Shown in pieces: positions 1 through 64,000 of a stretch of DNA of 64,000 nucleotides. The notes below the pieces were generated by a model that was not told where the DNA came from, ran no database searches, and saw only the letters and a program-made list of their open reading frames with translations. Position 1 is the stretch's first letter. Each line of letters begins with the position of its first letter. The position numbers and the translations under genes were made by a program. Source of the DNA: a virus; the IMG/VR virus record IMGVR_UViG_3300045988_159790. The stretch is one strand, 5' to 3'.

Positions 1-2610
1 ATTCCAACGGGTAGCAATATAAGCTGTTTGAAATCCGATAAAAGAGTATGCAAGTGCATGTATAGTAGAAAAAGAATAGCCCATTTGCGGTCCTACTCCG
101 CAGTCCCATACATATTTTCCAAGCTGTTCTGATTTTGCCTGGTCTAAAATTTGTTTATGAAGAGCTGGGATTTTACTCATTTGCTTTTTTCCAACAATTT
201 TTCTTGCGGCATTAGCATCTTTAAGCGAGAATCCGCAAATATTTTCATCCATTAACATTGTCATTAACTGCTCTTGAGAAGGTGGTACTCCATAAGATTT
301 TTTAAAATGAGGTTCAAGTGTTTTTTGTTCTGCATTTGTTAAACCATAATTATCCATTTCATCATACCAAAGTTCAATGTTATTTTTAAAACGGATATAT
401 TTATCCATAGGCTGCTCTCCGCCTTCTTCTGCTGTCATTAATCTTAAAAGACCATTTGCATCACTTAACTCTAAAATATTCTTAGGTTTAATCTTTTTTG
501 CAGCCTGACTACCAACAATAGAATCAAACTGAAACAAATCAAGAATATTTACATTATCAATATTATCCCAAACTTGTTTATCATCAAGAGGCAATACAGA
601 AGGGTGAAAATATTTATTATAAACTTCTTTTAAAGATAAATCTTTTTCAATTTCTCCATAATCTTGTAAAAACTGAATTGCTTGTACGAGCTTATCTTGT
701 ACTTCTGTAACTAAGAAATCATATTTTGTAAGACCTGCGGCTTCGCACATATGCAAGTCATACTGTGTAATGACATCTCCACTAGGAGTTCTCATAAAGC
801 ATCCAAATTGATATGGGTCTTCATCAAAAAGAATAACTCCAGATGCATGACTACCTCTACGAGAAATTAATCCCTCAATGCCCAAAATAATATTTAATAA
901 TCCAGGATATTGATTTACTTCATTTAAAAATGAAGTAACTGGTCTTCTACCTTTATCGCTATTTCCATTGACAACTTCATCAAGAGACCATAAAAATCCT
1001 CTTTCTTCCGGGATTAATGATGACATATACTGCGCAGTATCTACATCAATTCCGTCTGGATAATCTTCACTACGGTATCCTCTACATGCAGTTTGAATTG
1101 CACTTTTTGTTGTCTCTGTACCAAAAGTTGCAATAAGTGTACATCCGCAGTTCTTTCTTGTAATATCATCAACCTCTGGTAAAAAATTCTTTCCACGCTC
1201 TTCTTTTATTCTTTTTAATATTAAAGGTCTTTTACTTGGACAAAGGTCTAAGTCTATATCACCAAGCTCAAATCTCTCTTTATTAAGATATCTCCAAAAA
1301 GGCAAATCCCATTCGATTGGGTCTAGCTGTGTAACTCCTAAGAGATAGTGATTTAATCCTGAACAAGAAGAACCTCTTCCTGCTCCAACCATACTGCCGC
1401 ATTCCCAAAACATATCTACATAATGTTGAAGAGTTATTGGATATTCAAACATATTAGTATTAAGTGCTTTTCCTATTGTTCTTTTTATATCAGCTTCTTC
1501 TTCAAGTCTCGATAAATAAACATCATTTAGTTTTCCTAGAACATGTAATTTATTAATACATTCATTTACCCAATATCTTTCAACTTTGTCTTCTGACATG
1601 AATAAATCAATTAAGGTTGGATATTTATTTAACTCCATATCATCTCCACATGGTTTATGTTCCCATCGAGGATAATATTTTACTTCTACTTTAGGTATCT
1701 GTTGAGAATGTAATAATGAATAATTCTCAATTTTATTATAAATATCCATTGAGTTTGCGCACATAATACTAAACATATCTATAATAGATGGCTCTAAATT
1801 CTTTTTAATTTCTTCTTCAGTTTGTAAATAACTATATTCGTAAAAAGAATCTACTTCACGCTCTTCATCTTTTGAATTTAGATATGCCTTATGTACAAAT
1901 CTATCACTCTTTTTTAAATAATGCGCATCTGTACCAATAACGATAGGAACATTAAAAGTCGCAGATAATTCAACCATTTTTTTATTTACTGTTATTTGTT
2001 CTTTATTTGCGGCAGGTGCAACTTCAAAATAAAAGTCTTGATTAAAAACTTTTTTACACCATAAAACAAAATCAATAATCTTATTTTTTGCTTCATTTGC
2101 GGTTTGATTATCTCCAAGTTTTCTAGCTTCTTCCATTACCAGTATATTTGAAGACAGCTCTCCGCCTAAACAAGCTGTTGTTGCAATTAAATGTCCAGGT
2201 TCTTCTTTTACAATATTTTCTAAATCTTCTTTTAAAGTTGGAACTCTTTCCATTTTATCAGTGTAAGAGTTTAACCAAGCAATAGAAGAGATTCTTCTAA
2301 GTTGTTTATGTCCTATCGCATCTTTTGCTATCAGAATAAAATGATAATATTTAATTCCTTTTTCTCTTTTATCAACAAGATATATTTCATCGCCAAGTGC
2401 GATTTTAAAATCTGGATTTGTTTTAATAATCTCTTGTGCATATTGATTAACTTCGATATGACAACATAATGCTTCATGGTCTGTTATCGCAATACCTTTA
2501 AGACCAATATCTATAGCTCTATTAACCAAATCTTTTGGTTTATTAATACAATCAAGTAAACGAATATTACTATACATTGTGTGAGAGTGAGGTTCAAATC
2601 TATCAAACAT
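1..2610 (-). CDS. dnaE: DNA polymerase III alpha subunit (DnaE-type, PHP + polymerase core); 5-prime end at 2610, gene runs off window start
   Basis: Manual translation from ATG at 2610: MFDRFEPHSHTMYSNIRLLDCINKPKDLVNRAIDIGLKGIAITDHEALCC (PHP domain); later AGRGSSCSGLNHYLLGVTQLDPIEWDLPFWRYLNKERFELGDIDLDLCPSKR matches DnaE palm GRGSAAGSLV...DFDVDF. Continuous minus-frame coding across 1-2610, absent from ORF track because truncated. Confidence 0.8.
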   Translation of the reverse strand, partial: MFDRFEPHSHTMYSNIRLLDCINKPKDLVNRAIDIGLKGIAITDHEALCCHIEVNQYAQEIIKTNPDFKIALGDEIYLVDKREKGIKYYHFILIAKDAIGHKQLRRISSIAWLNSYTDKMERVPTLKEDLENIVKEEPGHLIATTACLGGELSSNILVMEEARKLGDNQTANEAKNKIIDFVLWCKKVFNQDFYFEVAPAANKEQITVNKKMVELSATFNVPIVIGTDAHYLKKSDRFVHKAYLNSKDEEREVDSFYEYSYLQTEEEIKKNLEPSIIDMFSIMCANSMDIYNKIENYSLLHSQQIPKVEVKYYPRWEHKPCGDDMELNKYPTLIDLFMSEDKVERYWVNECINKLHVLGKLNDVYLSRLEEEADIKRTIGKALNTNMFEYPITLQHYVDMFWECGSMVGAGRGSSCSGLNHYLLGVTQLDPIEWDLPFWRYLNKERFELGDIDLDLCPSKRPLILKRIKEERGKNFLPEVDDITRKNCGCTLIATFGTETTKSAIQTACRGYRSEDYPDGIDVDTAQYMSSLIPEERGFLWSLDEVVNGNSDKGRRPVTSFLNEVNQYPGLLNIILGIEGLISRRGSHASGVILFDEDPYQFGCFMRTPSGDVITQYDLHMCEAAGLTKYDFLVTEVQDKLVQAIQFLQDYGEIEKDLSLKEVYNKYFHPSVLPLDDKQVWDNIDNVNILDLFQFDSIVGSQAAKKIKPKNILELSDANGLLRLMTAEEGGEQPMDKYIRFKNNIELWYDEMDNYGLTNAEQKTLEPHFKKSYGVPPSQEQLMTMLMDENICGFSLKDANAARKIVGKKQMSKIPALHKQILDQAKSEQLGKYVWDCGVGPQMGYSFSTIHALAYSFIGFQTAYIATRWN

Positions 2611-2634
2611 TAATTAATTACCAACTTTCTTTAT

Positions 2635-2673
2635 TATATAAATATTATATCATATATTTTATATAAAATCAAG
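2635..2673 (-). promoter_or_regulatory. conserved phage promoter motif (sigma70-like -35 TTGATT / extended -10 TGATATAAT) upstream of dnaE-like gene
   Basis: Coding-strand sequence CTTGATTTTATATAAAATATATGATATAATATTTATATA about 30 nt upstream of ATG 2610. Confidence 0.6.
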
Positions 2674-2683
2674 AAAACGAGAA

Positions 2684-2869
2684 CTAAATGTTCTCGTTTT
2701 TTATATTTTTTCTTATTTCATTAATACAATTTTCACAAATTTCTGCCTCTCCCCATGCAAACCAATTTGAATTATCTGTATCTTTGAACAATATTCTCTT
2801 TTTTATTTTATAACTCTTTAAATTATCAGGAATTGTTTTAGAACATATTACACATATATTTTTCATCAC
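2684..2869 (-). CDS. small zinc-ribbon protein
   Basis: 61 aa; CVICS...CENC cysteine pairs. Confidence 0.35.
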   Translation of the reverse strand: MMKNICVICSKTIPDNLKSYKIKKRILFKDTDNSNWFAWGEAEICENCINEIRKNIKNENI

Positions 2870-5287: not shown

Positions 5288-5312
5288 TTTATTATTCTTT
5301 TCCTTTCTTATC

Positions 5313-5350
5313 TATATAAATATTATATCATATTTTAAAATTAAAATCAA
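5313..5350 (-). promoter_or_regulatory. conserved promoter motif copy
   Basis: tatataaatattatatcatattttaaaattaaaatcaa on plus strand = TTGATT..17..TATAAT on coding strand; upstream of NADAR gene. Confidence 0.55.
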
Positions 5351-11159: not shown

Positions 11160-11174
11160 TATTTTATACACCTC

Positions 11175-11210
11175 TATAAATATTGTATCATATTTTTTAT
11201 ATAAAATCAA
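11175..11210 (-). promoter_or_regulatory. conserved promoter motif copy
   Basis: -35 TTGATT, -10 TACAAT variant, followed by GAGGTG RBS and ATG 11159. Confidence 0.55.
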
Positions 11211-12417: not shown

Positions 12418-13395
12418 TTAAAAGTTAAAACCACCCATTGCTGCGCTAACAGTACTTGAAGCAGGTGTTGCTGCAGATGTTGAATTAGCATTGGCAGCTC
12501 TTGAAGCCTGATATTCTTCATTTCTCTTCTTAGTTTCTGCGAGATACTTTTCACGGTCCGCCATAGCAGTCTTAATTTCTTCTGGCGAAATATCTCCGTC
12601 TTCCTCGATTGCATAAATAGCATCAGTCTGAGATGTTCCATCAATTACCCATTCTTTAACATTTCTTGTTGTCTCAATAACCTGTGGAGCACCAAATGCT
12701 GATTCTTCAGTTCTCTTGTTAGAAATATTCTTACTATTAATATGTCCCCAGACCTTTGTAAAAGTAAGATTGTTTGAACTTGCATCAAGGCTTTCAAAAT
12801 ACTGAATTCCGCCCTTATCATAACATACAAATTCAACTGGAAGAATTGCATTTCTAAAATTAAAGATAGCACCTTTAATTACTAAATGCTCATCTATATT
12901 ATGCTCTTCATCAGCTTCAACAAATCTTGTTCCATTAATAAGAATATCAGCGATAAAAAGATTTCTCTTATCTACTTTCTTATTAAGTTCGCTAATTGCT
13001 TTAACGAATCCACCTTCACACTTCTTTGCACTTACTAACTCTTCCTCTCCAGTTGTTCTGTTAGGAGTATAGAAATCATTAAGTGCAGTTGCAGTATCTA
13101 TAGCAAGTAACATAGCTTCATCTTTACCATTTACAACAACAGTCTTTCCATTTTCAATAATAGATTTTAAAGTTGTAAATGTGTTATTCTTACTGCCCTT
13201 TGCAGTATACTCTGTTACAAAAGTAAAATGTGTCTTAACAATATTAAGACAATCTTCATCTGTTGCTAAATTAAGAGTTCCCGCAATATACTCTTTTCCA
13301 TAATTGCTTGACTCCTTATTCTGAACAGTTTTAATTGCTAAATCATGTTCATATAACTTTCCTTCTAAATGTACTGAATTAATCATTTTCTTCAT
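12418..13395 (-). CDS. putative ssDNA-binding protein
   Basis: Position in replication module, OB-like beta-rich N-terminus, C-terminal ...MGGFNF tail ending in aromatic residue as in T7 gp2.5; weak. Confidence 0.3.
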   Translation of the reverse strand: MKKMINSVHLEGKLYEHDLAIKTVQNKESSNYGKEYIAGTLNLATDEDCLNIVKTHFTFVTEYTAKGSKNNTFTTLKSIIENGKTVVVNGKDEAMLLAIDTATALNDFYTPNRTTGEEELVSAKKCEGGFVKAISELNKKVDKRNLFIADILINGTRFVEADEEHNIDEHLVIKGAIFNFRNAILPVEFVCYDKGGIQYFESLDASSNNLTFTKVWGHINSKNISNKRTEESAFGAPQVIETTRNVKEWVIDGTSQTDAIYAIEEDGDISPEEIKTAMADREKYLAETKKRNEEYQASRAANANSTSAATPASSTVSAAMGGFNF

Positions 13396-13481
13396 TGTTC
13401 TTATTTTCTCCTTAAATTAAAATTAATTCTTTATATAATATATTATATCAAAAATTTTTTATTTTATCAAGCTACTGAAGA

Positions 13482-13838
13482 TTAATTATCTTCTAAATGC
13501 TGCTCTCTTCCAAGAGCTGTAATTGCGTATATTACTGGATTTGTTCCAACCTTTTCAACATAACCATCAGTAACTAATTTTCTTAATGCGCCAGATGCAG
13601 TTCTTGAAGTAATACTTAAACCTTCTCCAATACTTTTTGCATTAAAGAGATTCTTAAATGCATCTTCATTATTCTGCATATAATCTAAAACAAGCTTACC
13701 ATTTTCTGTGAACTGTGGTTTATCATTTTCTTTTGTTATACAGAGTGCATCAAAATAATTCTTTGCATCTTCACTAAGAACTAAACCTACATTAATTGCT
13801 TCTTTAATTTCTTTAATAAAAACATCTCTTTTACTCAT
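13482..13838 (-). CDS. winged-helix DNA-binding protein
   Basis: C-terminal RTASGALRKLVTDGYVEKVG...PVIYAIT wHTH-like. Confidence 0.4.
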   Translation of the reverse strand: MSKRDVFIKEIKEAINVGLVLSEDAKNYFDALCITKENDKPQFTENGKLVLDYMQNNEDAFKNLFNAKSIGEGLSITSRTASGALRKLVTDGYVEKVGTNPVIYAITALGREQHLEDN

Positions 13839-13867
13839 TTTTTTAAATCCTCAACTTTTCTTTTCTT

Positions 13868-13906
13868 TATATAAATATTATATCATATTTTTTATTTATT
13901 TTCAAC
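13868..13906 (-). promoter_or_regulatory. conserved promoter motif copy
   Basis: tatataaatattatatcatattttttatttattttcaac. Confidence 0.5.
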
Positions 13907-15081: not shown

Positions 15082-16037
15082 TTATTTATTTCCTTTCAAA
15101 ATGTTATATCCATAATTGACACTATCATATAAACCTATGTAGTATCTTTCTTTTTCATTTAATTCTGCTCTATCGCATTTTTCTAATAACTCCCAAGAGA
15201 AAGATTGCAATCCATACTCTTGCATTGCTTTATATAATTTATTACCGCGGGAGTGTCTATTCCTAAACCGCACTTTGCATGTTCTGACCATCTAGCAGCA
15301 ATATCTGCAGCTTGACCTATGTAACATTCTCCTGTGATAATATTAGTTATTTTATAAATACCTGTAACAGTAGAAGTGCCAAGTATATTCGCGGCAAGTG
15401 CTTTTAATGGTTTTTGAAACCATGTTTGCCAAATTAACATGCTTAAAACTCTTGGTTTATTTAAAGTCTTTTTTATATTTTCTAACTTTTGAATATCTGC
15501 AATATCAGTGTCGCTTATCTTTAAACAATAGAAAGATTGCTGTTCTTTAATCTTCTTTTCTCTAATTTGAGCTTCTATTGCGGCAGTCCGAGTTGCTTTT
15601 ATTTTATCTAATTCTTTTTGAATTTCTGATGTTTCCGCAAGTAATTTTTCTTGCGCAATGGCATAAGCTTCTCTAAGACTATCTTCTAATTCACTATATT
15701 CTTCTTCTGTATTTCTATATGCTGAATCTAGAATATCACAATATGATTCAAATGCTTCTTGAGACCTTTGTTTACTATTAGAAATAGTTTCATCTATCTG
15801 GCGTAAATTCTCTGTATAAATATTAATTTGTTCTTTTAGATTTTTTATATCGTTTTTTGTATTTAGTTGTTCATAATTTAATTTATCTTTTTCTAATTTA
15901 AGGTTACTTATTTGATATTCTAGTTTATTTTTTTCATCTTTAGCTTTTGTATTATCTTTAATTTTTACATTCAATACAAACCATAATGCAATCACCAAGA
16001 TAAAACAAAATATACCTAATCCAATTGTAATACCCAT
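15082..16037 (-). pseudogene. DUF4041 (TM + coiled coil) fused to GIY-YIG/T5orf172 nuclease domain, frameshifted
   Basis: 284-aa frame ends ...GIYKITNIITGECYIGQAADIAARWSEHAK (GIY-YIG N-half); 69-aa overlapping frame carries ...GNKLYKAMQEYGLQSFSWELLEKCDRAELNEKERYYIGLYDSVNYGYN (GIY-YIG C-half); frames switch near 15255-15285. Confidence 0.5.
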
Positions 16038-16415: not shown

Positions 16416-16811
16416 TATTTCTTTTTCTCCTTTTAATTAAATATTTTTTTTATTTTATAAGTGATAGACACTTTATATAAAATGAATTAGATTACTTAGA
16501 AAATTTTTCTTGTATATATTCATCAATTTCAAGAAGTTCATCTCCGCTAAGATTTTTTGATAACTTAGCCATTTCTTCTAAATTTTCTAATACATTATTT
16601 CCTTGTTGACATTCTTTTTCTAAAGAATATATCTTCTTTGCTATTCCTTTTAAATGCGAATTCATATCTATCTTCCTTATATACATATTATATCAAAAAA
16701 TTTTTATTTTTTCAAGTTTGATAGGCTTTAAACTTAAAAATGTTTTCTTTTCTTTTGATATAAATATTATATCAAAAAATTTTCAAGTTTTCAACTTACT
16801 GCAACCTTATA

Positions 16812-17935: not shown

Positions 17936-18739
17936 TCAATCTGTTAAGATATTTTCTTCATAAGCAATAACGCTTACAACAGGACTATTCCATTCTTCAA
18001 AGACATATGAAATATTCCCACGATTTTTTACATTTTGTGATAAATAGTTTGTATCTACAATAAACTCACTACAACAATTAGAGTGTATTGTATATACATT
18101 ATTAGTGTCTGTATGTCTATCTGACTTTGTATCAGACATAATACAAGGTATAACAGTTCCATTTGCTAATACCAAATCGAAATATTGTCCTATTGATAAA
18201 TTAAAATAAGTTCCCATAGCTACACAATATCTATTGTCAATTATCCTTAGACCATTTTCATCTGTTACTGCATAATTTCTTTGCAAATATAATTCATTTG
18301 AGCCATTTAAACAAATTGCTTTATAACTCATATAACTTTTAAAGCCATTATAATTTGCATAATATGGTAAATCATATTCAGTACCAATAGGCTGATATAC
18401 TTCTACTTCATCTGCGGTAAGCTCTTCTCCAATATCATTTACCTCTTCTATTGTTACTTCAGTTGTAACTTCTTCTTTTTCTTTTTCTAAAGGAATAATA
18501 TCTTCTGAGTTTTCCTCATTTGAAATTTGACTCTGCTCATAATTAAGCGAATACTGATTGACAAGTTCAGGAGAGCCAAGTGTTGTTTCTGGTCGCGGCA
18601 ATAGCATTAATATTAATAATGAACTACCATAAAAGAATGTTAGTAGACTCATACCAAGCCAACTAGAATCACTTATGCGACTAGAATGTTTTTTGTTTCT
18701 CTTTATTTGTTTCATTTTTCCTCCCATTAAGAGCGGCAA
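17936..18739 (-). CDS. membrane-anchored extracellular protein
   Basis: N-terminal TM LLTFFYGSSLLILMLL, acidic linker, C-terminal globular domain. Confidence 0.4.
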   Translation of the reverse strand: MPLLMGGKMKQIKRNKKHSSRISDSSWLGMSLLTFFYGSSLLILMLLPRPETTLGSPELVNQYSLNYEQSQISNEENSEDIIPLEKEKEEVTTEVTIEEVNDIGEELTADEVEVYQPIGTEYDLPYYANYNGFKSYMSYKAICLNGSNELYLQRNYAVTDENGLRIIDNRYCVAMGTYFNLSIGQYFDLVLANGTVIPCIMSDTKSDRHTDTNNVYTIHSNCCSEFIVDTNYLSQNVKNRGNISYVFEEWNSPVVSVIAYEENILTD

Positions 18740-19025
18740 AACTGTATAATATATATGATTTTTAAAACAATAAAATTATCTATTATTGTCCTTTATTTAT
18801 CATATATATTATTATATCATATTTTTTTTATTAAGTCAATTTGAGAAAAAATGTGAGAAAGTCTACGCGGCAACCGGTAAAAACCGGCGCCGTAGGTCTT
18901 TCTTTGACTAGCTTTCTTTCTCCCTACTGAGAAAGAAAGTAGAAGATATTGATATACTTGCCCTTAAGCAGGTATTATTATATGAAAATTATAGTATATA
19001 GATTATTCATTTTTGTCCAAAAATT

Positions 19026-22035: not shown

Positions 22036-23108
22036 TGTGCCTCCTATGTTTCCATAGGCACTGACTATCTCTTCGCTCCGACTTGTCAAGTCATCAACGC
22101 GTCCTCCATTTCCACTTTTGTATCAATAAAAAGTGTACTGCGGGTCTCACCCCACATAGTCGATACAGCTTATTCTATATCTTTATATGTATGTCGAGTA
22201 ATAATGTTGTATATAGTACTCCAACTTACATCTGGTGCGTATTTTAACTGCACCTCTTTTGGACTTAAACCACTATCATAATCTTTTCTCATCTGTATTA
22301 CGGTTTCTTTTGAAAACTTTCTTTTGTTATTAGAAGCTATTTCAGAAGAATTTGCTTTCGCTTGATGAGAATGCCAATATTTATTTTCTTCAGTGTGATA
22401 TTCCGGATGAATATCCTTCCAAGTATCGAACCACCAAACTTTTTGCAATCCTCTTTTAGATATTTTATCTTTATATTTCTCAAAAACATCTTTAAAAGGA
22501 ATATGTGAATTATAACATTCTCTAATATCATAAACATCTTCTCTAGTTAATAATGCACGACCATTTTTTTCACCAGACTGACCTCGATTTGGATTATCAT
22601 CGCCACCTTCTGTTGCATTATAACCATTTTTATAAGAATCATAATATTTAATGAAATACTTTTCTAAATCATCTAATATTTGTTTAGAATATTCTTCTTT
22701 TGATATTTCTACAATTACCTCATAAGAAAAATTTTCTAATCCATATTTTCTAATAGCTTGATGAAATTGACTATTGTAATCTTTTGCATTTTTGTTGAAT
22801 GCAGAAGATTTATGTGCATATCTACGCTGTTCTAAGTCAATACTCTGTCCGATATAAATTTTGTGGTTTATTTTATTTTGATATTTATAAATTCCAATCA
22901 TTTACACTGTCTCCTTTCATTTATATTAAAAGGTGATAGTGTTTTAATTATTTATTTTTGTCCAAAGATATAAAATCTTGCCACGGGATTGACTTCGCCT
23001 AAACATATTTTGACTTATATGTGTAACGGTCAGCTTTCCCCGTTAGCCGCATATTTATGCGACCCCGCTGATAAACGGTAAGAAGGATTCGGGCAATAGT
23101 TTTCACTT
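22036..23108 (-). mobile_element. group I intron interrupting topo II B-subunit gene at the EGDSAGG Toprim motif
   Basis: Exon 1 ends ...ITEG with last nt U (ggt) then in-frame TGA; exon 2 resumes DSASGN after an intron-terminal G; GC-rich structured segments 22036-22169 and 22902-23108 flank a GIY-YIG ORF. Confidence 0.6.
22170..22901 (-). CDS. GIY-YIG homing endonuclease (intron-encoded)
   Basis: MIGIYKYQNKINHKIYIGQSIDLEQRRYAHKS canonical GIY-YIG; AAAGGAG RBS. Confidence 0.8.
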   Translation of the reverse strand: MIGIYKYQNKINHKIYIGQSIDLEQRRYAHKSSAFNKNAKDYNSQFHQAIRKYGLENFSYEVIVEISKEEYSKQILDDLEKYFIKYYDSYKNGYNATEGGDDNPNRGQSGEKNGRALLTREDVYDIRECYNSHIPFKDVFEKYKDKISKRGLQKVWWFDTWKDIHPEYHTEENKYWHSHQAKANSSEIASNNKRKFSKETVIQMRKDYDSGLSPKEVQLKYAPDVSWSTIYNIITRHTYKDIE

Positions 23109-24378: not shown

Positions 24379-24603
24379 CTAATCCCTTTCTTCCTTTATA
24401 ATATTTACAATATCTATTCCATTAAAAGTAACAGCTATTTTATTATTGGGAAAAGCTCGCTGATATTCTTCTAAAAAATTTGATACTTCTCGTATATTAA
24501 AAATATCTTGGTCGAATTTAAGAACAATAGTATCACCTTTTGATATTGATAAAGTTGTACAAGAAATACCTTTTTCAGAATCTGTAATAAAACTATTTAC
24601 CAT
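24379..24603 (-). CDS. small hypothetical protein
   Basis: 74 aa ORF followed by promoter motif. Confidence 0.3.
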   Translation of the reverse strand: MVNSFITDSEKGISCTTLSISKGDTIVLKFDQDIFNIREVSNFLEEYQRAFPNNKIAVTFNGIDIVNIIKEERD

Positions 24604-24622
24604 TTTCTTCTCCTTTTTTCTT

Positions 24623-24660
24623 TATATTAATATTATATCATATTTTTTTTCTGATGTCAA
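24623..24660 (-). promoter_or_regulatory. conserved promoter motif copy upstream of topo II operon
   Basis: tatattaatattatatcatattttttttctgatgtcaa. Confidence 0.5.
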
Positions 24661-25763: not shown

Positions 25764-26564
25764 TTATCTCCTTTTCTTTCTTCTATGTATTTCATATCTA
25801 TCTTTTAATTCTATATTAGTAACCTCTCCGCAATCTGTTGTTACTGTAGAAATGGGATAGATGTTATATATATCAGTATAAGGGTAATTATCATGAGCAG
25901 GGTCTGAGAATGAATGTCTCATTCTAATAATAGCTTCTTCTGGTACATAAGCTCTTGTTCCTTTTCTTAAATTATTCCCATAAAGTGCAACTTCTTCACT
26001 AACACTCACGAAAAGCGGAATTACATTAACATCTTTTAAGAAGCCTTTCCCGATAGAGTTAATTAATTTCATTCTTGAACTTTTATTAAGATGTGTTGCA
26101 TCTGCGAAACAGTAGTTATTAAAATTTATCTGATATTTAATTTCATTAACGAATAACTCAAAGACTTCTTTTTCTTTTGAGAAGTACTCTTCATCTTCTG
26201 AAACTATACTAAAACGAATTAAATCTCTACTAACAACATGCTTTTCATAATTAATCTTATTAAGCTTACAAAACATAGATAAGAAGCTTGATTTTCTTGA
26301 ACCTGGACAGCCGCACATTAAAAATAAGTACTTTTCATTAGGCTTTATTTCTATATCTCCAATAATTTCTCCATTCTTATCTCCATTTATAAAATATGGA
26401 TATTCATTTTCTTCATTACATTCATTTAAAAATAATGAGAATGTATAAATACCTGGTTTATAATAGTGACCATCTCCGCGATAACACTCTTTATATTTAG
26501 AACAAGATTCATTACCGCATCTTGTTATATCATTGTCAAAATAAGAAATTGCATTATTCATCAT
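25764..26564 (-). CDS. polynucleotide 5-prime-kinase-like P-loop protein (Pnk kinase domain-like) with N-terminal Cys-rich region
   Basis: Walker A LMCGCPGSRKSS resembling T4 Pnk GCPGSGKST, downstream SRD...R; N-terminal CxxC pairs. Confidence 0.55.
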   Translation of the reverse strand: MMNNAISYFDNDITRCGNESCSKYKECYRGDGHYYKPGIYTFSLFLNECNEENEYPYFINGDKNGEIIGDIEIKPNEKYLFLMCGCPGSRKSSFLSMFCKLNKINYEKHVVSRDLIRFSIVSEDEEYFSKEKEVFELFVNEIKYQINFNNYCFADATHLNKSSRMKLINSIGKGFLKDVNVIPLFVSVSEEVALYGNNLRKGTRAYVPEEAIIRMRHSFSDPAHDNYPYTDIYNIYPISTVTTDCGEVTNIELKDRYEIHRRKKRR

Positions 26565-26866
26565 ACTTTACCCTCTTTATTTAACTTAGCTCTAAATTCT
26601 CCATAAGGAAGAATTCTATTTCCTTCTTCATCAAAGTTACCTTCATTAAACTCTAATAAGAAATCACTATAATCATATTTAGTCCATGGTTTACACTCTA
26701 CATGATTATGCTCTTCTTTGCAATTAAGACACCATAGTCTTTTTAAATGTCCAGCTTCTCTTTCCTGTCCTCTCTTGCGGGGAATATCAAAGCCTCTTTT
26801 ACCACATTTTGTACAATAAAATTCACTTGGGTCTGCTAATTGCGTTCTTCTTGCCATATATAACAC
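26561..26866 (-). CDS. small zinc-ribbon protein
   Basis: CTKCGK...CLNCKEEHNH. Confidence 0.4.
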   Translation of the reverse strand: MLYMARRTQLADPSEFYCTKCGKRGFDIPRKRGQEREAGHLKRLWCLNCKEEHNHVECKPWTKYDYSDFLLEFNEGNFDEEGNRILPYGEFRAKLNKEGKV

Positions 26867-26921
26867 TTCCTTTCTTTTTATATATATATTATAACATTTT
26901 TTTTAATAAAAATCAAAAAAA

Positions 26922-47033: not shown

Positions 47034-47109
47034 AAATAACAAGACATTTTTCTGCTGTTTGCATTTGCTTGAAAGAAATTAATTGTTTGCTGTAAATGTC
47101 TTTTTTATT

Positions 47110-47146
47110 ATATAAATATTATATCATAAAATTTTTTAAAAATCAA
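47110..47146 (-). promoter_or_regulatory. conserved promoter motif copy at head of tRNA cluster 46257-47033
   Basis: tatataaatattatatcataaaattttttaaaaatcaa; -35 overlaps last codons of radical SAM gene. Confidence 0.55.
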
Positions 47147-48068
47147 ATATACTCATATGTCCGCAAAGAGTACATTCTCCAATACGACAATACTGTGGAC
47201 GCTCACTCACTCGATAATTCTTTATTGGTATCATATTATGACAAGGAATTGCCATATTTTTTTCAACATACACATAATCACTATCTCTTGAGCATTTTAA
47301 TCCTCTAGTATCAATAGCAATACCATTTTTACCATACTGTTTTAAAACTTCATTTCTAGTAGGGAAGCGTAATTCTTGACCATCATCAAAACAAACAAGA
47401 TATCTATCTCCTACTTTATAATTTCTAATCTTTTCTCCATGCTTTGAAGTATCTAACAAATCTTCTTCACACATATAATGGCAATTAAGCTCATTACATT
47501 TATCTATAAAAGCTTGAACCTGAGTATTTTGTTCAGTAATGACTGTTTCACATTTAAAATTAGTACCTATTTTCTTATTTATTATATCAGCTTTAGCCAT
47601 AAATGTATCTAAATCTGTATACTCATAATGAAAACTTGCAGTCATAGATAATTTCTTACCATATTTTTCTGCTATACTAATTAAATTTAAAAAATAATCA
47701 ACAGGTTTAGAAAGATTTGTAGTAATATTTACTTTAGTTATTGCAGGACTTGTATATAATTTTTCTAATAAAAGTCCTAAATCTTTGAATAAAGTAATCT
47801 CGCCACCAATTAAGTCAATCTTAACGGGCTTGTTGTTTATAGTATTCAACTCACCCGCTAATCTAACTATATCATCAACCGCATCTAAGCATAAAGAAAA
47901 GTCATATGTAAGATTACTTTCTGATTGAATAAACTCTCTACGAATACAATAGCTACAATGATAATTACAAATATCTGTTAAACGCCATTTTATAACGCAT
48001 GAATTATCTAAGTCAAGTATTCTTCTTATTTTACTCACAACATATCTTCCTTTCTTTATTTTATACAT
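47136..48068 (-). CDS. radical SAM domain protein with C-terminal Cys cluster
   Basis: TDICNYHCSYC (CxxxCxxC) plus C-terminal CRIGECTLCGHM. Confidence 0.65.
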   Translation of the reverse strand: MYKIKKGRYVVSKIRRILDLDNSCVIKWRLTDICNYHCSYCIRREFIQSESNLTYDFSLCLDAVDDIVRLAGELNTINNKPVKIDLIGGEITLFKDLGLLLEKLYTSPAITKVNITTNLSKPVDYFLNLISIAEKYGKKLSMTASFHYEYTDLDTFMAKADIINKKIGTNFKCETVITEQNTQVQAFIDKCNELNCHYMCEEDLLDTSKHGEKIRNYKVGDRYLVCFDDGQELRFPTRNEVLKQYGKNGIAIDTRGLKCSRDSDYVYVEKNMAIPCHNMIPIKNYRVSERPQYCRIGECTLCGHMSIFDF

Positions 48069-48105
48069 ATATTATATCATAAAATTTTTAAGAAATCAAA
48101 ATATT

Positions 48106-51983: not shown

Positions 51984-53093
51984 TCGTATTTCCCAGTTGA
52001 ATTGTCCGTCTTCCCGATATATTCAGTATAGTTCGCTAAGCTATACCCGTTCTCTTATGAACTGCTAAATATCTCTATCTAGTCTAGACTATATCACCAA
52101 CTTTTAAAAAGTTGTCTGCCATTTCGGATTGCTTAATCCTACTCCTCCGCCGAGGATAGTCGTTGAACCTTCTTAACTAATAATAATTAAATATAAATAA
52201 AATGATAGCCACCTGTTGTTTTTCTTTTCCCATTACATACAGCCGAGATTAATCTAAAATTTAATCCCATTTGTCGACCTGCTTCATGCGCACTATCAAA
52301 AATAACATTTGTTTCAAGACATTTAACTTGTTTTGACTGTCCATGATTTTCTATAGGCTTGTAATCTATTTTTCCTTTTTCATTATACTCATCAAGATAC
52401 ATAAAATGATGACCTTTGATTTGACCTTGTAAGTGATTACAAACTCTAGACAAATCACCTTGACTAATTCCTAATTGATTAGCACATTCCATACAACCAT
52501 CATAAATTTTTAAAGTGTCAGTATCAATAATTTTTCGTTTTTGACCATTGAGAATTGGAGACCCTCCTCCTTTTATATTATAACCTTTAAGAGGGTCACA
52601 ACTATTATATAAAGAAATATAATAGATTTCATATTGATTTAATTCTTCTCTTTTACATTCTTTTAAAATTTCCCATGAAAAATTTTCAACACCTGTCTCA
52701 CTAATTTCTTTATCAAGGACTCCATGATAATGTTTTTCATTACTATAGTTTTTAAAAAAATGGTCTTTTATTCGAGATTCAATATTAATACTTTGACCAA
52801 TATAAACTTTATTATTTATATTATTAGTAATTTTATAAATACCTATCATTTTATTATTTAATAACTCCTTTTTATTAAAATTAGATAGCTATTATTTTAT
52901 ATTTTATTATTATTGTTAAGCTTGGCTGCTGATTGCCCATTGTCTTATAATATTTTAGGATTACTCCATAATACATCTCTTAACTTATTTCTGCTTTCGC
53001 CCTATTATATTTTATATAATAGTATAAGAGCTTTAGGGGTTTCCAGCAATTAAACAGATTTTTCATTACCCTTCATAAGGTAAAGCCACTGAA
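51984..53093 (-). mobile_element. putative group I intron with GIY-YIG homing endonuclease ORF inserted after GT2 glycosyltransferase domain
   Basis: GIY-YIG ORF flanked by GC-richer structured segments 51984-52186 and 52850-53093, analogous to the topo II intron. Confidence 0.45.
52187..52849 (-). CDS. GIY-YIG homing endonuclease
   Basis: MIGIYKITNNINNKVYIGQSINIESRIKDHF canonical GIY-YIG N-terminus. Confidence 0.8.
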   Translation of the reverse strand: MIGIYKITNNINNKVYIGQSINIESRIKDHFFKNYSNEKHYHGVLDKEISETGVENFSWEILKECKREELNQYEIYYISLYNSCDPLKGYNIKGGGSPILNGQKRKIIDTDTLKIYDGCMECANQLGISQGDLSRVCNHLQGQIKGHHFMYLDEYNEKGKIDYKPIENHGQSKQVKCLETNVIFDSAHEAGRQMGLNFRLISAVCNGKRKTTGGYHFIYI

Positions 53094-53651: not shown

Positions 53652-53703
53652 TGCAATAATCTCCTTTTATCTCTTTTATTCAATTATATCATATTTTTTA
53701 GAA

Positions 53704-54927
53704 TTATGCAAACATTGCTGCAATTTCTGCATCTGTAATAGGAGTAAGCTCTTCTGCAGTTTCATCAACTACAATAGTGATTGTAGTATCATCAATCTTA
53801 CCTGCAGCTTTGGCTGCAGCTATCTCTGACTCTGTTCCCATAAATACACGAGAATCAATATATGCTTTAACTGTTGATGCTTTTGCATTAACTTTATAAT
53901 CCGTTCCAAGAACAGAAGTTAAAAATGCTTCATCAATAGCAACATCCGCGTATGTAGGTGTTACACTCTCACTTGAAGCTACTGTACAAATATATAATTT
54001 ATTTCCGCTTAAATATACTTCACCAACTTTAGCTGTTGTTGGAAGTGTAGCAATAGTTCCTTTAAATACAAGAGATTCACCAGTTGCAGCAATGCTATCT
54101 AATACTTCTTGTGATAACATAGCTTTTGTGATTGCTGCATTATCAATAGTTGCAGAAATCTTATTATTAGAACCAACAACTACTTTAATAATATTGTTAT
54201 CAGTACCTTCATAAACATCAACTAAATCTTTAACATATATATAAATTTTTTGATTATCGGCAGTTCCCTCTTGAACATTGATAATTAATTCAATATATTT
54301 TCCAAGTTTATCATCTGTTACACCGTCTGGTAATGCAAGAATATTCTCACCATCTTGATAGTATAATTCTCCAATTTTAGTAAAATCAGTTATTTTACCT
54401 GATTTAACTAAGAAATCTTTAGGAATATCAACTTTACCAATTTCTGCGCCATTCTGTGTAAAAGTATATGTCTTTAAAGCACCTTCTGTTGTAGTGCTAG
54501 TTGTGATAGATACTGTTGCATGCTCTTTAATTAAATTCTTAATAGAACCTTCAACACTATCTTCACCTTCAAGTTTAGTAATTTCTTTTTGTAAATTATC
54601 AATATCTGTAGTAATAGAAGTAATATCTACTGATATTTTATCTGTTTTATCTTCATCAAAAAATAAATCAATATAAACCTTATCAACATCTTCTCTAAGT
54701 TCACCAGATTTTAATACTTTACTAAAAGGAATATTAATTTTAGATGCCGTTCCTGTAGGTGCACCTAAATCATTAACACCTTGATAAATTTCATAAGTTG
54801 CGGCATAGCCAGTCTCAGGTGTCTCTGCAGCTTTGATATAAACTTTATTATATTTTTTAATCGCTGCGTCATAAGCTACAAGACCTTCTTTGTCTAAATA
54901 TTTAGCCATTAATTTATCTCCTCTCAT
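53704..54927 (-). CDS. putative virion structural/fibre protein
   Basis: 407 aa, Thr/Ser/Val-rich beta-type composition, N-terminal AKYLDKEGL, adjacent to tail fibre. Confidence 0.4.
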   Translation of the reverse strand: MRGDKLMAKYLDKEGLVAYDAAIKKYNKVYIKAAETPETGYAATYEIYQGVNDLGAPTGTASKINIPFSKVLKSGELREDVDKVYIDLFFDEDKTDKISVDITSITTDIDNLQKEITKLEGEDSVEGSIKNLIKEHATVSITTSTTTEGALKTYTFTQNGAEIGKVDIPKDFLVKSGKITDFTKIGELYYQDGENILALPDGVTDDKLGKYIELIINVQEGTADNQKIYIYVKDLVDVYEGTDNNIIKVVVGSNNKISATIDNAAITKAMLSQEVLDSIAATGESLVFKGTIATLPTTAKVGEVYLSGNKLYICTVASSESVTPTYADVAIDEAFLTSVLGTDYKVNAKASTVKAYIDSRVFMGTESEIAAAKAAGKIDDTTITIVVDETAEELTPITDAEIAAMFA

Positions 54928-58533: not shown

Positions 58534-58535
58534 AA

Positions 58536-60913: not shown

Positions 60914-60925
60914 ACGCTTATTTTA

Positions 60926-61246
60926 TTAAGCGGTTGCCGCAGCCTTCTTAGCTTTTGCCTTAGCTGCAGCTTCTTTCTCTTTAGCAATCTTATTATCAAG
61001 CTTAGCAAAGATTGATGTTACGATTGCATAAGGAACTCTTGATGACTTAGCTTTCTCCGCCCTCTTGTCCTTTTCAATCCACCACTTCTTTGTGTAAGGC
61101 TTGTAAGGATTTGCCTTATATACATAAGCTTTTCCAGCTTCACGCTTTGCAGCAAACTTTGCCTGACGCTTAGCTTCCTGAGCTTTATGAGCCTTTGTTC
61201 TACCACCATTTGATACTCTTGATACTCTCTTATTCTGTCCTGCCAT
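60926..61246 (-). CDS. highly basic AK-rich protein (histone H1/Hc1-like tail), putative nucleic-acid-binding
   Basis: 106 aa, about 30 percent Lys/Arg, C-terminal AKEKEAAAKAKAKKAAATA; elevated GC; inside tRNA region. Confidence 0.45.
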   Translation of the reverse strand: MAGQNKRVSRVSNGGRTKAHKAQEAKRQAKFAAKREAGKAYVYKANPYKPYTKKWWIEKDKRAEKAKSSRVPYAIVTSIFAKLDNKIAKEKEAAAKAKAKKAAATA

Positions 61247-61520
61247 AATATAAATCTCCTTTTCTTTTCCTTTTCTTTGTTACATATATATTATATCATA
61301 AATTTTATATAATATCAAATAGATTTTTATTTCCTTTTGTTTATATCAAGCGGGTAAGGTTGACATTATTGTCAACCAATCCGCTAACAGAAAGGAAATT
61401 TATATGAACTGAATTTTTAAAGGAAGAAATTCAGAAAAACCAAGTAGCGGGTGCTGGCTCTGCCCCAGCGTTCTTCGGATAATGAGTCCGACGAGATTCT
61501 GACTTCTCCAACCCGCGGCA

Positions 61521-62147
61521 CTAAATTCTTTTCCAATAATATCCATAAGCAGCTAAACCTTTATTTATTGCTCTTGAGATATTTTTTCTTGCTGTTTCTA
61601 TTGGTTTATTAGGGATATCTTTAGCAGCTTCTGTTATTGAAGGATAATCTTTATATTCAGTCTTATCTATATTGTATCTCCTAACTTGTTTTCTTTGCCT
61701 ACCATCAAGAATTGTTACATTATTTTCTTTACAAGCTAAATTAACAACTAACTTATCGCAATTGAAGAATTTACAAGTTTCTTTAACTGATTGTAACTCA
61801 ATATACTTTTTAGAAATTTCTTCATAATCATATAATCTTCTTGAGTCACCACCTAAAGTAGCATTATAACCTACGCAATCTTCATAGCCTACATATGTTC
61901 TTAATTTCTTTATCCAGTATTGTTCTCTTTGACAAGCAATATCATCATTTTCAACTTCTTCAATTTGTTCTATGAAAAAATTTTCTATTCCATATTTATT
62001 CATTGCATCATATAAAGGACGCTTTTCACATCTTTCTTTTTTACTAGCTGAAATATGTTCTTGAAATCTTTTTTCTATTGGAAATGATGTTTTACCAATA
62101 TACATTTTATTGTTAATAGAATTAACAATTTTATAAATATAACTCAT
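61521..62147 (-). CDS. freestanding GIY-YIG homing endonuclease (seg-like) within tRNA cluster
   Basis: MSYIYKIVNSINNKMYIGKTSFPIEKRFQEHI GIY-YIG; AAGGAG RBS. Confidence 0.75.
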   Translation of the reverse strand: MSYIYKIVNSINNKMYIGKTSFPIEKRFQEHISASKKERCEKRPLYDAMNKYGIENFFIEQIEEVENDDIACQREQYWIKKLRTYVGYEDCVGYNATLGGDSRRLYDYEEISKKYIELQSVKETCKFFNCDKLVVNLACKENNVTILDGRQRKQVRRYNIDKTEYKDYPSITEAAKDIPNKPIETARKNISRAINKGLAAYGYYWKRI

Positions 62148-62316: not shown

Positions 62317-62380
62317 AAGCTGCTAGGAGAAAATCCTAGCATATAGAAAAGAGGTAACTTATCAAAACTTCGCATCTGAA

Positions 62381-62454
62381 TGACTTCTGCCAGATTCGAA
62401 CTGACATTCCTAGGATGAGAACCTAGATTCCTAAACCGATTAGAAGAAGAAGCC
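62381..62454 (-). tRNA. tRNA, anticodon CTC (Glu) by loop TTCTCAT
   Basis: RC: GGCTTCT..CTAGG/TTCTCAT/CCTAG..GTCAGTTCGAATCTGGC..AGAAGTC+A. Confidence 0.55.
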
Positions 62455-62595
62455 AAATCCAACTTATATTATACTCTAGTTGGCAAAGAGTAACTTCTCG
62501 TAGTCGCACGACCAAGATTTACTTTCTTGATAAAAGGTAACTCTATGTCTGGGTAAGTTAGACGGAAGTTACTAGCCACTTATAAACCCATATCT

Positions 62596-62634
62596 TATAT
62601 AAATATTATAACATATTTTTTTATAAAAATCAAA
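62596..62634 (-). promoter_or_regulatory. conserved promoter motif copy in tRNA region
   Basis: tatataaatattataacatatttttttataaaaatcaaa. Confidence 0.5.
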
Positions 62635-62835
62635 TATTTCTAAACTCGGGTATGTATTATGAAAACTATTTAAAAATAGTGTTGTCTACATATTTTGCTG
62701 TAAGAGTTAATCATTTGATTTAAAGACAGTTCGCTTCTGTCTGATATAGGCAGTATCTCATTATGTGCCAGGAGACTTTCCTATAATCTTCGTCTGACCT
62801 ATCGCCGCGACACGCCATTCAGACTAGTGTTAAAT

Positions 62836-62905
62836 TGAGAGACCGAGAGTTGAACTCGGATGACCTCCGTATCAGAGAGGCATACTAACCATTATATTAT
62901 CTCTC
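62836..62905 (-). tRNA. tRNA-Ile(GAT)
   Basis: RC: GAGAGAT..CCTCT/CTGATAC/GGAGG..CGAGAGTTCAACTCTCG..TCTCTC+A. Confidence 0.55.
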
Positions 62906-63014
62906 AAGAAAAACTAGACACTATTGATTAATTAAAGGATATAAAGCCTTTAGCATTTTACATACAAATATTTTTGTTTGTTAGAATCATCAAATTCGCT
63001 GTTAGTGCCTAAAA

Positions 63015-63084
63015 AGTATCATGTAAGATTCGAACTCACTCTTCTAGGGAATACCCAGCGTACAAACCATTATACGAATGATAC
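63015..63084 (-). tRNA. tRNA-like gene with perfect acceptor and T arm but non-canonical anticodon arm (anticodon unresolved)
   Basis: RC: GTATCAT..GTAT AATGGTTT GTAC..CTGGG TATT CCCTAG..GTGAGTTCGAATCTTAC ATGATAC; anticodon stem gives 4- or 5-nt loop. Confidence 0.4.
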
Positions 63085-63209
63085 ATATAAGATAACTTCA
63101 AAAGCTTGTTACTCACTAGTAGAGAAGAAAACTTTTATAAAAGATAAAATAATCTCTTACAAGACTTAGTTATCATGTCTTTATACCACAATTTAATTTC
63201 TTAGGTTAG

Positions 63210-63292
63210 TGCGGGATGTGAGACTCGAACTCACAAGCTTAAAGCGTACGAGCTTAAATCGTATGTGTTTGCCAATTTCACCAATCCCGCAA
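63210..63292 (-). tRNA. tRNA-Leu(TAA), long variable arm
   Basis: RC: GCGGGAT TG GTG AAATTGGCAAAC AC..TACGA/TTTAAGC/TCGTA, variable CGCTTTAAGCTT, GTGAGTTCGAGTCTCAC. Confidence 0.7.
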
Positions 63293-63446
63293 GTGGCGTT
63301 TTATTTTATTGTTAACGCCAAACAATCTAATTTAAACTTGAAATACTAATTACAGAGCGTTTCCGCATAAAGATTTTCTGATTAGTATATTGTCATTTTT
63401 AATGCTACTACAAAATCTTTTTCACATTTTTTCTTTTTTCATATCT

Positions 63447-63485
63447 TATATAAATATTATATCATATTTTTTTATAAAAATCAAA
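63447..63485 (-). promoter_or_regulatory. conserved promoter motif copy between tRNA-Ala and tRNA-Leu
   Basis: tatataaatattatatcatatttttttataaaaatcaaa (consensus-perfect copy). Confidence 0.55.
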
Positions 63486-63494
63486 TATGATTAA

Positions 63495-63567
63495 TGGAGC
63501 TAGTGGGGTTCGAACCCACGACCTTTCGCTTGCAAAACGAATGCTCTCCCAACTGAGCTACAGCCCC
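63495..63567 (-). tRNA. tRNA-Ala(TGC) with G3:U70 identity pair
   Basis: RC: GGGGCTGTAGCTCAGTTGGGAGAGC..TTCGT/TTTGCAA/GCGAA..GTGGGTTCGAACCCCAC TAGCTCC A. Confidence 0.7.
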
Positions 63568-63846
63568 TTATACCCAGTATCTATCATACAATCTTAACAT
63601 ATTTGCTAAGCCTACTGGATTTGCAGTATGAAAATTTAGCTTATAGAATAACTTCTTTTCTATTAAATAATCCATTAAATAAATAGCATCGCCGCCATCT
63701 TTAGCGAAATCACCTAAATCATGGTCTAAATCAATTAATTCTATATCACTTTTATTCTTCTCAATAAATAATATAGTCTCATTAACTGAATGACACCACA
63801 CATATCCGCAAGGTGCTTTTCTTAAATCATCAAGCCATATTTTCAT
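63568..63846 (-). CDS. hypothetical protein
   Basis: 92 aa between tRNA-Ala and tRNA-Thr. Confidence 0.35.
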   Translation of the reverse strand: MKIWLDDLRKAPCGYVWCHSVNETILFIEKNKSDIELIDLDHDLGDFAKDGGDAIYLMDYLIEKKLFYKLNFHTANPVGLANMLRLYDRYWV

Positions 63847-63875
63847 AACATTCCTTTCTAGTACTAAAGTACTAA

Positions 63876-63946
63876 TTCTGGTTGAGAGAGTCGAACTCTC
63901 GTTACTGGGTTACAAAGCCAGGGTTCTACCATTAAACTAAACCAGA
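63876..63946 (-). tRNA. tRNA-Thr(TGT)
   Basis: RC: TCTGGTT TA GTTT AATGGTA GAAC C CTGGC TTTGTAA CCCAG..GAGAGTTCGACTCTCTC AACCAGA A. Confidence 0.65.
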
Positions 63947-64000
63947 TTATAAAATTAAAAGGTTTTTCACCAATGTAAGATAAACCAATAAACTTACTTT

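Follow-up and report, generated by a model that had tools for sequence, protein, structure and literature searches.

Predicted sigma-A promoters with a TG-extended -10 element recur across the non-structural modules of an uncultured phage of a probable Bacillota host

Introduction

Strong consensus host-type promoters are well known from the non-structural regions of large phages. The 64,000-nt stretch of viral DNA analysed here over its full length (IMG/VR record IMGVR_UViG_3300045988_159790, hereafter the window) carries recurring intergenic copies of a 38-nt motif that resembles such promoters, with a -35 hexamer, an A/T spacer and a -10 hexamer extended by TG. In the Bacillus cereus phage Bc431v3, 27 SigA sites are predicted upstream of DNA-metabolism genes, 12 of them with an extended -10; the genes served function in DNA synthesis and nucleotide metabolism and include a tRNA-His guanylyltransferase, and the genome has many rho-independent terminators (PMC3601020). 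T4-type phages carry promoter-early stem-loop (PeSL) cassettes, in which a stem-loop terminator is joined to a near-consensus sigma-70 promoter, a Shine-Dalgarno (SD) sequence and an ATG (PMC4122927). Extended -10 promoters also stay active after sigma region 4 has been displaced, as by gp39 of Thermus phage P23-45 or AsiA of T4 (PMC3950348). In bacteria, the core-promoter traits of Firmicutes/Terrabacteria comprise a TRTG extended -10, an AT- or AG-rich discriminator, a 3-bp YRY start element at the transcription start site and an AG-rich initial transcribed region (PMC12641261).

We report directly on the sequence anatomy of the motif, its placement by strand and gene, its statistics, its conservation and its class-specific distribution. 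On this evidence the copies are very probably promoters for the primary sigma-A/sigma-70-family holoenzyme of a Bacillota host, driving the non-structural genes of the phage.

A strand-specific motif upstream of operons

We built a position weight matrix (PWM) from sites picked on TGNTATAAT alone and applied it with a cut-off of at least 20 bits, using Markov shuffles as the control. This yielded 23 sites on the minus strand of the window, one on the plus strand and none in the shuffles (Table 1). The bias is also seen for TGNTATAAT itself (24 minus versus 2 plus), whereas plain TATAAT is strand-balanced (103 versus 108). The strict pattern TTGAN{15,17}TGNTATAAT has 17 matches, all on the minus strand, against 0.22 expected, and a repeat finder independently recovered the motif family (families D1-D7). 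An earlier model-made annotation of these letters (the sequence-only reading) had listed 22 positions; each of the 22 is a true site in the whole-window mapping, to which a weaker 23rd at 53691 is added.

The 23 sites all lie between genes and in the same orientation as these, essentially all of which are on the minus strand. Most are followed by a strong SD and an ATG, and three precede tRNA clusters. Leaders, taken from the inferred +1 to the ATG, are mostly 15-46 nt long, in rough agreement with the 25-35 nt given before. Two other elements of that description proved too generous. The copies had been called near-identical over 38 nt, but pairwise identity over 39 nt averages 72% (range 44-97%), the 28-nt consensus at up to 3 mismatches matches once, and the median copy has 7 mismatches to the consensus; near-invariance is confined to TG (22/23), TATAAT (22/23) and TTGA (18/23). 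Nor does almost every intergenic gap hold a copy: sites occur in 20 of the 51 gaps of at least 45 nt, or about once per operon of 1-7 genes.

In DNA of 31% GC, words made only of A and T recur by chance. An exact search of a viral collection with the 18-mer core gave one or two matches in each of many unrelated AT-rich contigs and was uninformative, so relatives of the phage were found by protein anchoring instead. Such recurrence would suit a motif that is not a promoter at all, and is rather a terminator, a structured RNA, a plus-strand signal or a low-complexity A/T artefact. We give this practically no chance. Shuffled sequence contains no match, and strand specificity is strict even though TATAAT is balanced between strands. 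Folds on both strands are weak (-0.9 to -7.1 kcal/mol, z +0.3 to -1.8), with no RNA or terminator structure, and there are no plus-strand genes to serve. The real terminators are separate GC-rich hairpins upstream. The non-promoter explanation is effectively refuted in silico, and the same observations speak against the case, named in the sequence-only reading, that the copies act only as terminators or in the opposite orientation.

Anatomy of the predicted core promoter

With position 0 set at the T of TG, the information profile consists of TTGAtt at -20 to -15, an A/T spacer with an A-run, T-A-TG-a-TATAAT and then about ten conserved positions, ATtTATATAa. The -35 consensus, TTGAyw, favours TTGATT and TTGAAA over TTGACA. 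In every strict match (17/17) 17 nt separate the hexamers, rather than the 16 nt first described. The Gram-positive form of the extended -10, TRTG, is found at 16 of 23 sites, and the single -10 exception is TACAAT in site 11190, the other 22 being exact TATAAT. An 'ataaca' variant, once proposed as a sub-class, is merely the free n of TGn (A in 18 copies, T in 5). A purine lies exactly 7 nt past the -10, at the predicted +1, in 21/23 sites and a T at -1 in 20/23, giving a YRY triplet; the leader from +4 to +25 has a purine fraction of 0.75 against a strand background of 0.57. When 380 unique family sites are picked by their -10 half alone, TTGA opens the hexamer located 17 nt before it in 81% and TTG in 92%.

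The block downstream of the -10 (ATTTATATA) is conserved even when sites are picked on TGNTATAAT alone, which removes the concern of circularity. Its information content in this genome is 7.2 bits over 11 nt although the sites were chosen without reference to it, and it is partly palindromic with the -10 region. Both properties would suit an operator, in which a phage or host DNA-binding protein bound at ATWTATATA would switch the whole class. We consider this quite improbable: the block falls where an A/T discriminator and a YRY start element are expected, relatives show merely a looser A/T-alternating preference (4.3-6.3 bits over 11 nt), and no candidate regulator was identified. The idea that ATTTATATA is a special element of this lineage was likewise rejected, the block being a tighter form of a clade-wide discriminator and start preference.

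The -10, the -35 with its spacing, the TG and the placement are all those of the sigma-70/sigma-A extended -10 class. Because each conserved part maps onto a Firmicutes trait (PMC12641261), we read the 38-nt motif as a complete stack of sigma-A core-promoter elements near their optima, with no unusual extra element. The earlier description of a near-consensus sigma-A promoter with a TG-extended -10 on the minus strand is thereby upheld, as geometry, placement, strand bias and conservation (below) all fit it.

Table 1. Predicted promoter copies and associated features of the window, with motif B and endonuclease genes
Feature	Position (nt)	Strand	Score or evidence	Predicted target or context
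Promoter, -35 TTGATT to ~+3	63446..63484	-	47.2 bits, strict match	tRNA-Leu/Asn/Ile cluster
Promoter, TGT variant of TGn	62595..62633	-	45.0 bits	Small open reading frame (ORF), two tRNA-Glu, GIY-YIG gene
Promoter	61280..61318	-	44.7 bits	Coding sequence (CDS) 60926..61246 and long tRNA array
Weak/atypical copy, -35 TTGCAT, divergent downstream block	53673..53711	-	22.1 bits	Before glycosyltransferase exon 1
Promoter	48061..48099	-	45.0 bits, Pfam	Radical-SAM gene 47136..48038
Promoter	47108..47146	-	47.4 bits	tRNA-Pro/His/Gln, then tRNA-Cys and Ro/TROVE-like gene
Terminator-fused copy without -35 (T-tract instead)	42244..42282	-	29.8 bits; terminator 42306-42284	AAA ATPase 41384..42217
Promoter, TTTATT in -35 slot	41114..41152	-	43.3 bits	YqeY-like and downstream genes
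Terminator-fused copy (TTTATT)	37820..37858	-	40.8 bits; terminator 37878-37859	CDS 37262..37798
Promoter	35707..35745	-	44.6 bits	CDS 35416..35685 and SPFH/flotillin-like gene
Promoter right after terminator 33775-33748, divergent downstream block	33709..33747	-	37.0 bits	Upstream member of pair 430 nt apart
Promoter	33279..33317	-	45.1 bits, Pfam	835-aa MVP-shoulder-domain gene
Terminator-fused copy without -35 and without TG (TATTATAAT)	30655..30693	-	24.3 bits	HNH gene and RNA-ligase operon
Promoter after terminator 26957-26923	26878..26916	-	40.8 bits	CDS 26561..26857, kinase-like and phosphoesterase genes
Promoter, perfect TTGACA-17-TATAAT with TG (12/12 hexamer)	24622..24660	-	40.8 bits	CDS 24379..24603 and topoisomerase IIB
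Promoter (TTGACT), leader 89 nt	18801..18839	-	PWM	CDS 17936..18715 and DNA ligase
Upstream member of tandem promoter pair, 79 nt apart	16756..16794	-	35.4 bits	
Downstream member of tandem pair	16677..16715	-	36.7 bits	Leader 15 nt to CDS 16492..16665
Promoter	13867..13905	-	40.7 bits	CDS 13482..13838
Promoter	13432..13470	-	30.2 bits, Pfam	YorF-like gene 12418..13395
Promoter (TACAAT) right after terminator 11244-11210	11172..11210	-	36.8 bits	Operon YAcAr, YorH-like, DnaB, primase, RecJ
Promoter	5312..5350	-	37.4 bits	NADAR, phosphoesterase, SF1 helicase genes
Best-scoring copy, right after terminator	2634..2672	-	48.1 bits	1320-aa DnaE-type Pol III alpha
Intrinsic-terminator-like hairpin abutting -35	2674..2700	-		One of seven terminator-promoter junctions
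Other junction terminators	11210-11244; 26923-26957; 30694-30714; 33748-33775; 37859-37878; 42284-42306			
Motif B, window copies	28409-28453; 22919-22965; 18976-19020; weaker ~55716	-		
Motif B, copies outside window	L258 1027 (+); L251 15695 (+); many related loci			
Further endonuclease genes	61521..62147 (GIY-YIG); 29978..30634 (HNH); 15183..16037	-		

Terminator junctions and the origin of the uniformity

Terminator-like hairpins are enriched 2-3 fold over shuffles, and at 7 of the 23 sites (2652, 11190, 26896, 30673, 33727, 37838 and 42262) such a hairpin ends directly against the -35. Across the family about 50% of sites have an upstream minimum free energy (MFE) of -8 kcal/mol or lower. 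Copies with TTTATT in the -35 slot make up 6% of family sites and usually abut a strong hairpin: 76% of them reach this MFE, compared with 50% of TTGA-type sites (Mann-Whitney p = 0.009). Copies without TTGA number 4-5 only in the window and have a terminator U-tract in the -35 slot. Because of the hairpin association across the family, we interpret TTTATT copies as terminator-fused promoters whose U-tract fills the -35 slot, the TG extension presumably compensating for the missing element. Of the suggestion that copies lacking TTGATT form a sub-class, the variant itself is real; the probable second class is a different motif, described below, rather than a variant of this one.

The combination of stem-loop, sigma-70-type promoter, SD and ATG, present at some of the sites, is also the architecture of PeSL cassettes, and the uniformity of the motif could reflect a mobile terminator-promoter-ribosome-binding-site cassette that spreads or shuffles genes by recombination. 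Two cassettes, at 26855-26916 and 30632-30693, are indeed 94% identical through promoter, leader, ribosome-binding site (RBS) and ATG before unrelated genes; a terminator hairpin, GGGCGAGTTkAATACTCGCCC, is near-identical at 30694-30714 and 42284-42306; and one break of homology with a relative, at ~2625, falls at a promoter edge. A column-shuffle test on 33 sites of this genome (window and flanks), however, found no excess similarity in the upstream flanks, and only the pair 26896/30673 has linked non-consensus positions beyond all shuffles, with a leader identity of 0.84 against a shuffle maximum of 0.77. The other differences from two close relatives are small indels or precise insertions inside genes, with homing-endonuclease ORFs, rather than changes at promoter junctions, and a terminator abuts no more than the seven window sites named above. 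PeSL-style shuffling was mostly rejected, the copies showing no general similarity beyond the consensus and the indel boundaries in the two relatives compared generally lying away from the elements; we regard it as an unlikely source of the uniformity. Since the flanks show no excess similarity and one pair alone exceeds the shuffles, the motif family appears to consist mostly of independent sites held near a strong consensus by selection, not by recent copying, with occasional cassette duplication.

Distribution by module and conservation in relatives

Exact protein matches place the window at ~15.1-79.1 kb of the 145,040-bp metagenomic contig ena:ERZ27250556:k119_273532. The window has a GC content of 31% and a steadily negative GC skew. 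Its phage-type genes for replication, recombination and RNA repair encode topoisomerase II A and B, DnaB, primase, RecJ, an SF1 helicase, an AAA_24 protein, DNA and RNA ligases, PhoH/PIN, Thg1-like and Ro/TROVE-like proteins and several homing endonucleases; there are also 23 tRNA genes and genes for a tail-fibre-like protein and an endolysin with glucosaminidase and CW_7 domains. The replication module is SPbeta-like, with homologues of YorF, YorH, YorI and YorL. A 1320-aa DnaE-type DNA polymerase III alpha gene starts at ~2610 (-) and extends past the window edge, for which reason the stretch 1-2610 (-) appears ORF-free in the ORF list; the notion that region 1-2600 is non-coding was rejected, as it is the 5' part of this gene. 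Outside the window, this genome has small hypothetical ORFs in the 10 kb upstream, and Pol III alpha, NrdD, dUTPase and RuvC in the 10 kb downstream. Beyond a point of convergent transcription lies a 10.9-kb module on the opposite strand, encoding tail-fibre-like and unknown proteins.

Megablast of 14 kb against cultured phages gave no match. Of the cultured phages, Enterococcus phages H1, VRE9 and EF1 and the SPbeta group come nearest, with ~38-42% protein identity (helicase, polymerase), and gene order is common to H1 and the window phage. Uncultured relatives of 120-200 kb are many in IMG/VR, and three further relatives lie in metagenome-assembled-genome (MAG) bins labelled Clostridium, Lachnospiraceae and Bacilli; an upstream walk with a small-ORF protein as query returned no relatives. 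Because of the CW_7 and glucosaminidase endolysin, the MAG-bin labels of the relatives and the Enterococcus/SPbeta affinity, we infer a Bacillota (Gram-positive) host.

The motif is unevenly spread over these modules. Nine further copies occur in the upstream 10 kb and one in the downstream 10 kb, and in the convergent tail-like module neither strand has a match of at least 14 bits. The weak 53691 copy is the only one in the 48-58 kb region of the window (tail-fibre-like, glycosyltransferase, endolysin). In Enterococcus phage H1, all 12 strict sites of the replication module are on the coding strand, and genome-wide H1 has 15 PWM sites in non-structural modules and 1 in its 56-kb structural module. 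A count of the strict pattern over the window and 42 related loci gives 144 matches on coding strands and 3 on opposite strands; the lineages share the canonical contacts, with a looser downstream block. The motif marks the small-ORF, tRNA, replication and RNA-repair modules. That it is missing from the tail/structural module agrees with the single, distinct transcription class that the sequence-only reading had proposed.

Site retention was examined in two relatives with ~92-95% identical DNA. The closer of them, at ~95%, keeps 23/23 sites; its identity to the window reaches ~99% in the 39-nt cores but is 95.8% in other intergenic DNA and 88.5% at third codon positions. As the cores are more conserved than either, the comparison indicates purifying selection on the promoter sites in close relatives.

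Proposed mechanism and its weighing

We envisage that sigma region 4 would contact TTGAyw while regions 3 and 2 would contact T(R)TGnTATAAT exactly 17 nt downstream. The A/T-rich discriminator ATTTAT should melt easily, and transcription would start at the A of the T-A-T start element, 7 nt past the -10, giving a short purine-rich leader (~25 nt) that bears a strong SD. The promoters would transcribe small early ORFs, tRNA arrays and the operons for replication, recombination, RNA repair and nucleotide metabolism. A terminator directly before a promoter would leave an operon insulated and re-initiated; in the minority of copies with the U-tract TTTATT in the -35 slot, the TG extension would take over the role of the -35. 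The polymerase that reads the sites, the exact start, the strength of the promoters and their early or middle timing are thus predictions from sequence.

Several points weigh against this reading or limit its details. A generic sigma-70 hexamer scan is not enriched in DNA of this composition (126 versus 119 expected), and therefore the signal comes from the TG extension together with the fixed spacing, the hexamers being insufficient by themselves; the generic scanner is informative only for TG-flagged top matches and for terminators. Gene starts come from an ORF and SD heuristic, by which single leader lengths may err and one, at 37838, is visibly mis-called. The weak site at 53691 may be non-functional. 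Finally, although no sigma factor or RNA polymerase (RNAP) occurs in the ~95 kb inspected of the ~145-kb genome, a phage-encoded sigma or polymerase with sigma-A-like specificity could still lie in the remaining ~50-60 kb.

This last point bears on whether the promoters are instead read by a phage-encoded sigma-70-family factor or a phage-remodelled host RNAP, which would make them a middle rather than an immediate-early class. The sites are more uniform than typical host promoters, positions -6 to +3 are conserved, and TG promoters stay active when phage factors such as P23-45 gp39 or T4 AsiA block -35 recognition (PMC3950348). Even so, conservation falls exactly on the positions that a housekeeping sigma contacts, at canonical spacing, and the downstream block fits generic Firmicutes discriminator and start elements. 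The inspected ~95 kb also lack a YonO homologue, as do the window, related loci and the Enterococcus relatives examined, and the densest cluster of sites lies among small ORFs typical of immediate-early regions, which need transcription before any phage protein is made. We see only a slim chance for a phage-dependent reader, and favour the primary sigma-A holoenzyme of the host.

A second bipartite motif and endonuclease insertions

A different element, motif B, recurs in gaps without the main motif. It has a fixed 45-nt geometry, TTGGWCAAAAAtRRATAAy, N13 and TTTT(A/C)ATATwa, and in the window and related loci it matches 22 times on coding strands and 0 times on the opposite strand, with 0.2 expected. 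On the structural side of 26 loci the counts are 13 and 0. The single box TTGGWCAAAAA at 1 mismatch is not enriched in the window (8 versus 7.07 expected), and motif B is convincing only as a bipartite motif across relatives; Enterococcus phage H1 lacks it. Motif B probably represents a second promoter class that is specific to the phage, and is a candidate for middle or late expression. We entertain, tentatively, a two-class programme in which the main motif would be the host-sigma-A early/middle class and motif B a late class read by a phage-encoded factor or polymerase. If this is true, the universal TG and the -35-less copies would keep the main class active even with -35 recognition disabled by a phage factor, and if motif B is a late promoter, transcription would start just downstream of TTTTAATATA. 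Motif B is the more interesting lead and could point to a new late-transcription factor.

One copy precedes a GIY-YIG ORF (22170..22901) inside a 1076-nt insertion at 22033-23109 (-) that splits topoisomerase IIB into 423 aa and 183 aa; a relative whose DNA is ~92% identical has the gene uninterrupted, as a 641-aa ORF. The insertion resembles a group I intron that carries a homing endonuclease, but a comparison of the gene-splitting insertions with Rfam returned neither group I nor group II introns, even at E <= 0.05. A second such region, at 51960-53093 (-), has a GIY-YIG ORF (52187..52849) between structured, GC-richer flanks and splits a family-2 glycosyltransferase into 185 aa and 195 aa, an uninterrupted 397-aa form of which is encoded on another contig. 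Relatives carry similar insertions in helicase and PhoH-like genes, and there too motif B precedes the ORFs inside them.

A third repeated box, AATTAGGTTTTGGAwTTTTTTAAATCrAwTTTTA, has three copies in the genome, at ~12339 (-) and ~57557 (-) in the window and at L251 19704 (+). Each stands shortly upstream of an RBS, before the AAA_24 gene, the endolysin and RuvC.

Other features of the window

The investment in RNA repair and tRNA is large (25764-29744, 35723-36529, 39786-40442, 44722-46197, 46256-47034 and 57895-63946, all minus strand). The set comprises RNA ligase, a kinase-like AAA_33 protein, phosphoesterases, an RlaP-like nucleotidyltransferase, a Thg1-like protein, a cREC_REC protein and the 23 tRNA genes, and the Ro/TROVE-like gene has tRNAs on both sides. 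Two promoters, in the window at 47085-47111 (-) and in locus L254 at ~8545 (+), have a similar leader, ATAATAAAwAAGACA...ACAGCAA. The first of these stands before the tRNA-Pro cluster, and the two may represent a common 5' leader of precursor transcripts. Within the tRNA array, two ORF-free, GC-richer gaps of ~450 nt (59785-60238 and 60313-60749, minus strand) fold with mild significance (z -1.8 and -2.7) and match nothing in Rfam; they may be non-coding RNAs of a new type.

A cyclic di-GMP-I riboswitch aptamer (RF01051) at 44604-44677 (-) scores 62.3 bits against a gathering score of 35. It sits right after a terminator and upstream of a CAP-domain gene (cysteine-rich secretory family) at 43688..44557. 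The 835-aa protein encoded at 30729-33236 (-) has Major Vault Protein (MVP) shoulder and repeat domains; its gene adjoins the SPFH/flotillin-like gene (33777-35309, -), and a LemA-family gene lies nearby (38662-39210, -). This trio is unusual in a phage.

Comparison with known systems

For annotation, the motif yields an operon map and an early/middle-versus-late partition for a widespread, uncultured family of Bacillota phages from gut and rumen, ~120-200 kb in size, along with a collection of predicted very strong, compact Gram-positive promoters. The feature is ordinary in kind: no concept is changed, and its value lies mainly in annotation.

The bipartite canonical hexamers, together with the lack of an RNAP in the ~95 kb inspected, argue that the motif is not a promoter of a single-subunit or phage RNAP (T7-like, YonO-like). 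TTGA stands at the canonical distance in 18/23 sites, and on this ground we also do not class the motif with -35-less promoters. The near-universal TG extension (22/23) and the minority of copies without a recognisable -35 do resemble the middle/late promoters of P23-45; unlike in that class, a good -35 with correct spacing is retained in 81-92% of family copies. No factor resembling gp39 or AsiA was identified in the phage sequence inspected; a takeover strategy of the P23-45/AsiA type is conceivable here.

With PeSL cassettes the motif shares a composite layout that is repeated through the non-structural, plastic part of the genome. It differs in its Gram-positive host, in belonging to an unrelated lineage and in having a stem-loop in only about one-third of window copies. 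Mobility on the PeSL pattern was not borne out, the evidence for shuffling amounting to one duplicated pair and one breakpoint.

Closer parallels are the SigA early/middle sets predicted in Bc431v3 and SPO1-like phages, where sites of the type TTGACA-N-tgnTATAAT likewise stand before DNA-metabolism genes amid many terminators. The window phage is only distantly related to these phages, with its SPbeta-like replication module, and the ~95 kb inspected show no gp34-like sigma factor. Among cultured phages, Enterococcus phage H1 has the same array and the same scarcity in the structural module (1 site in 56 kb). The Firmicutes sigma-A promoters with a TRTG '-16' extended -10 match element for element: TTGAyw, a 17-nt spacer, T(R)TGnTATAAT, the discriminator, the YRY start and a purine-rich initial transcribed region (PMC12641261). 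Judged from sequence, the phage sites are much closer to consensus and more uniform than the average Firmicutes host promoter set.

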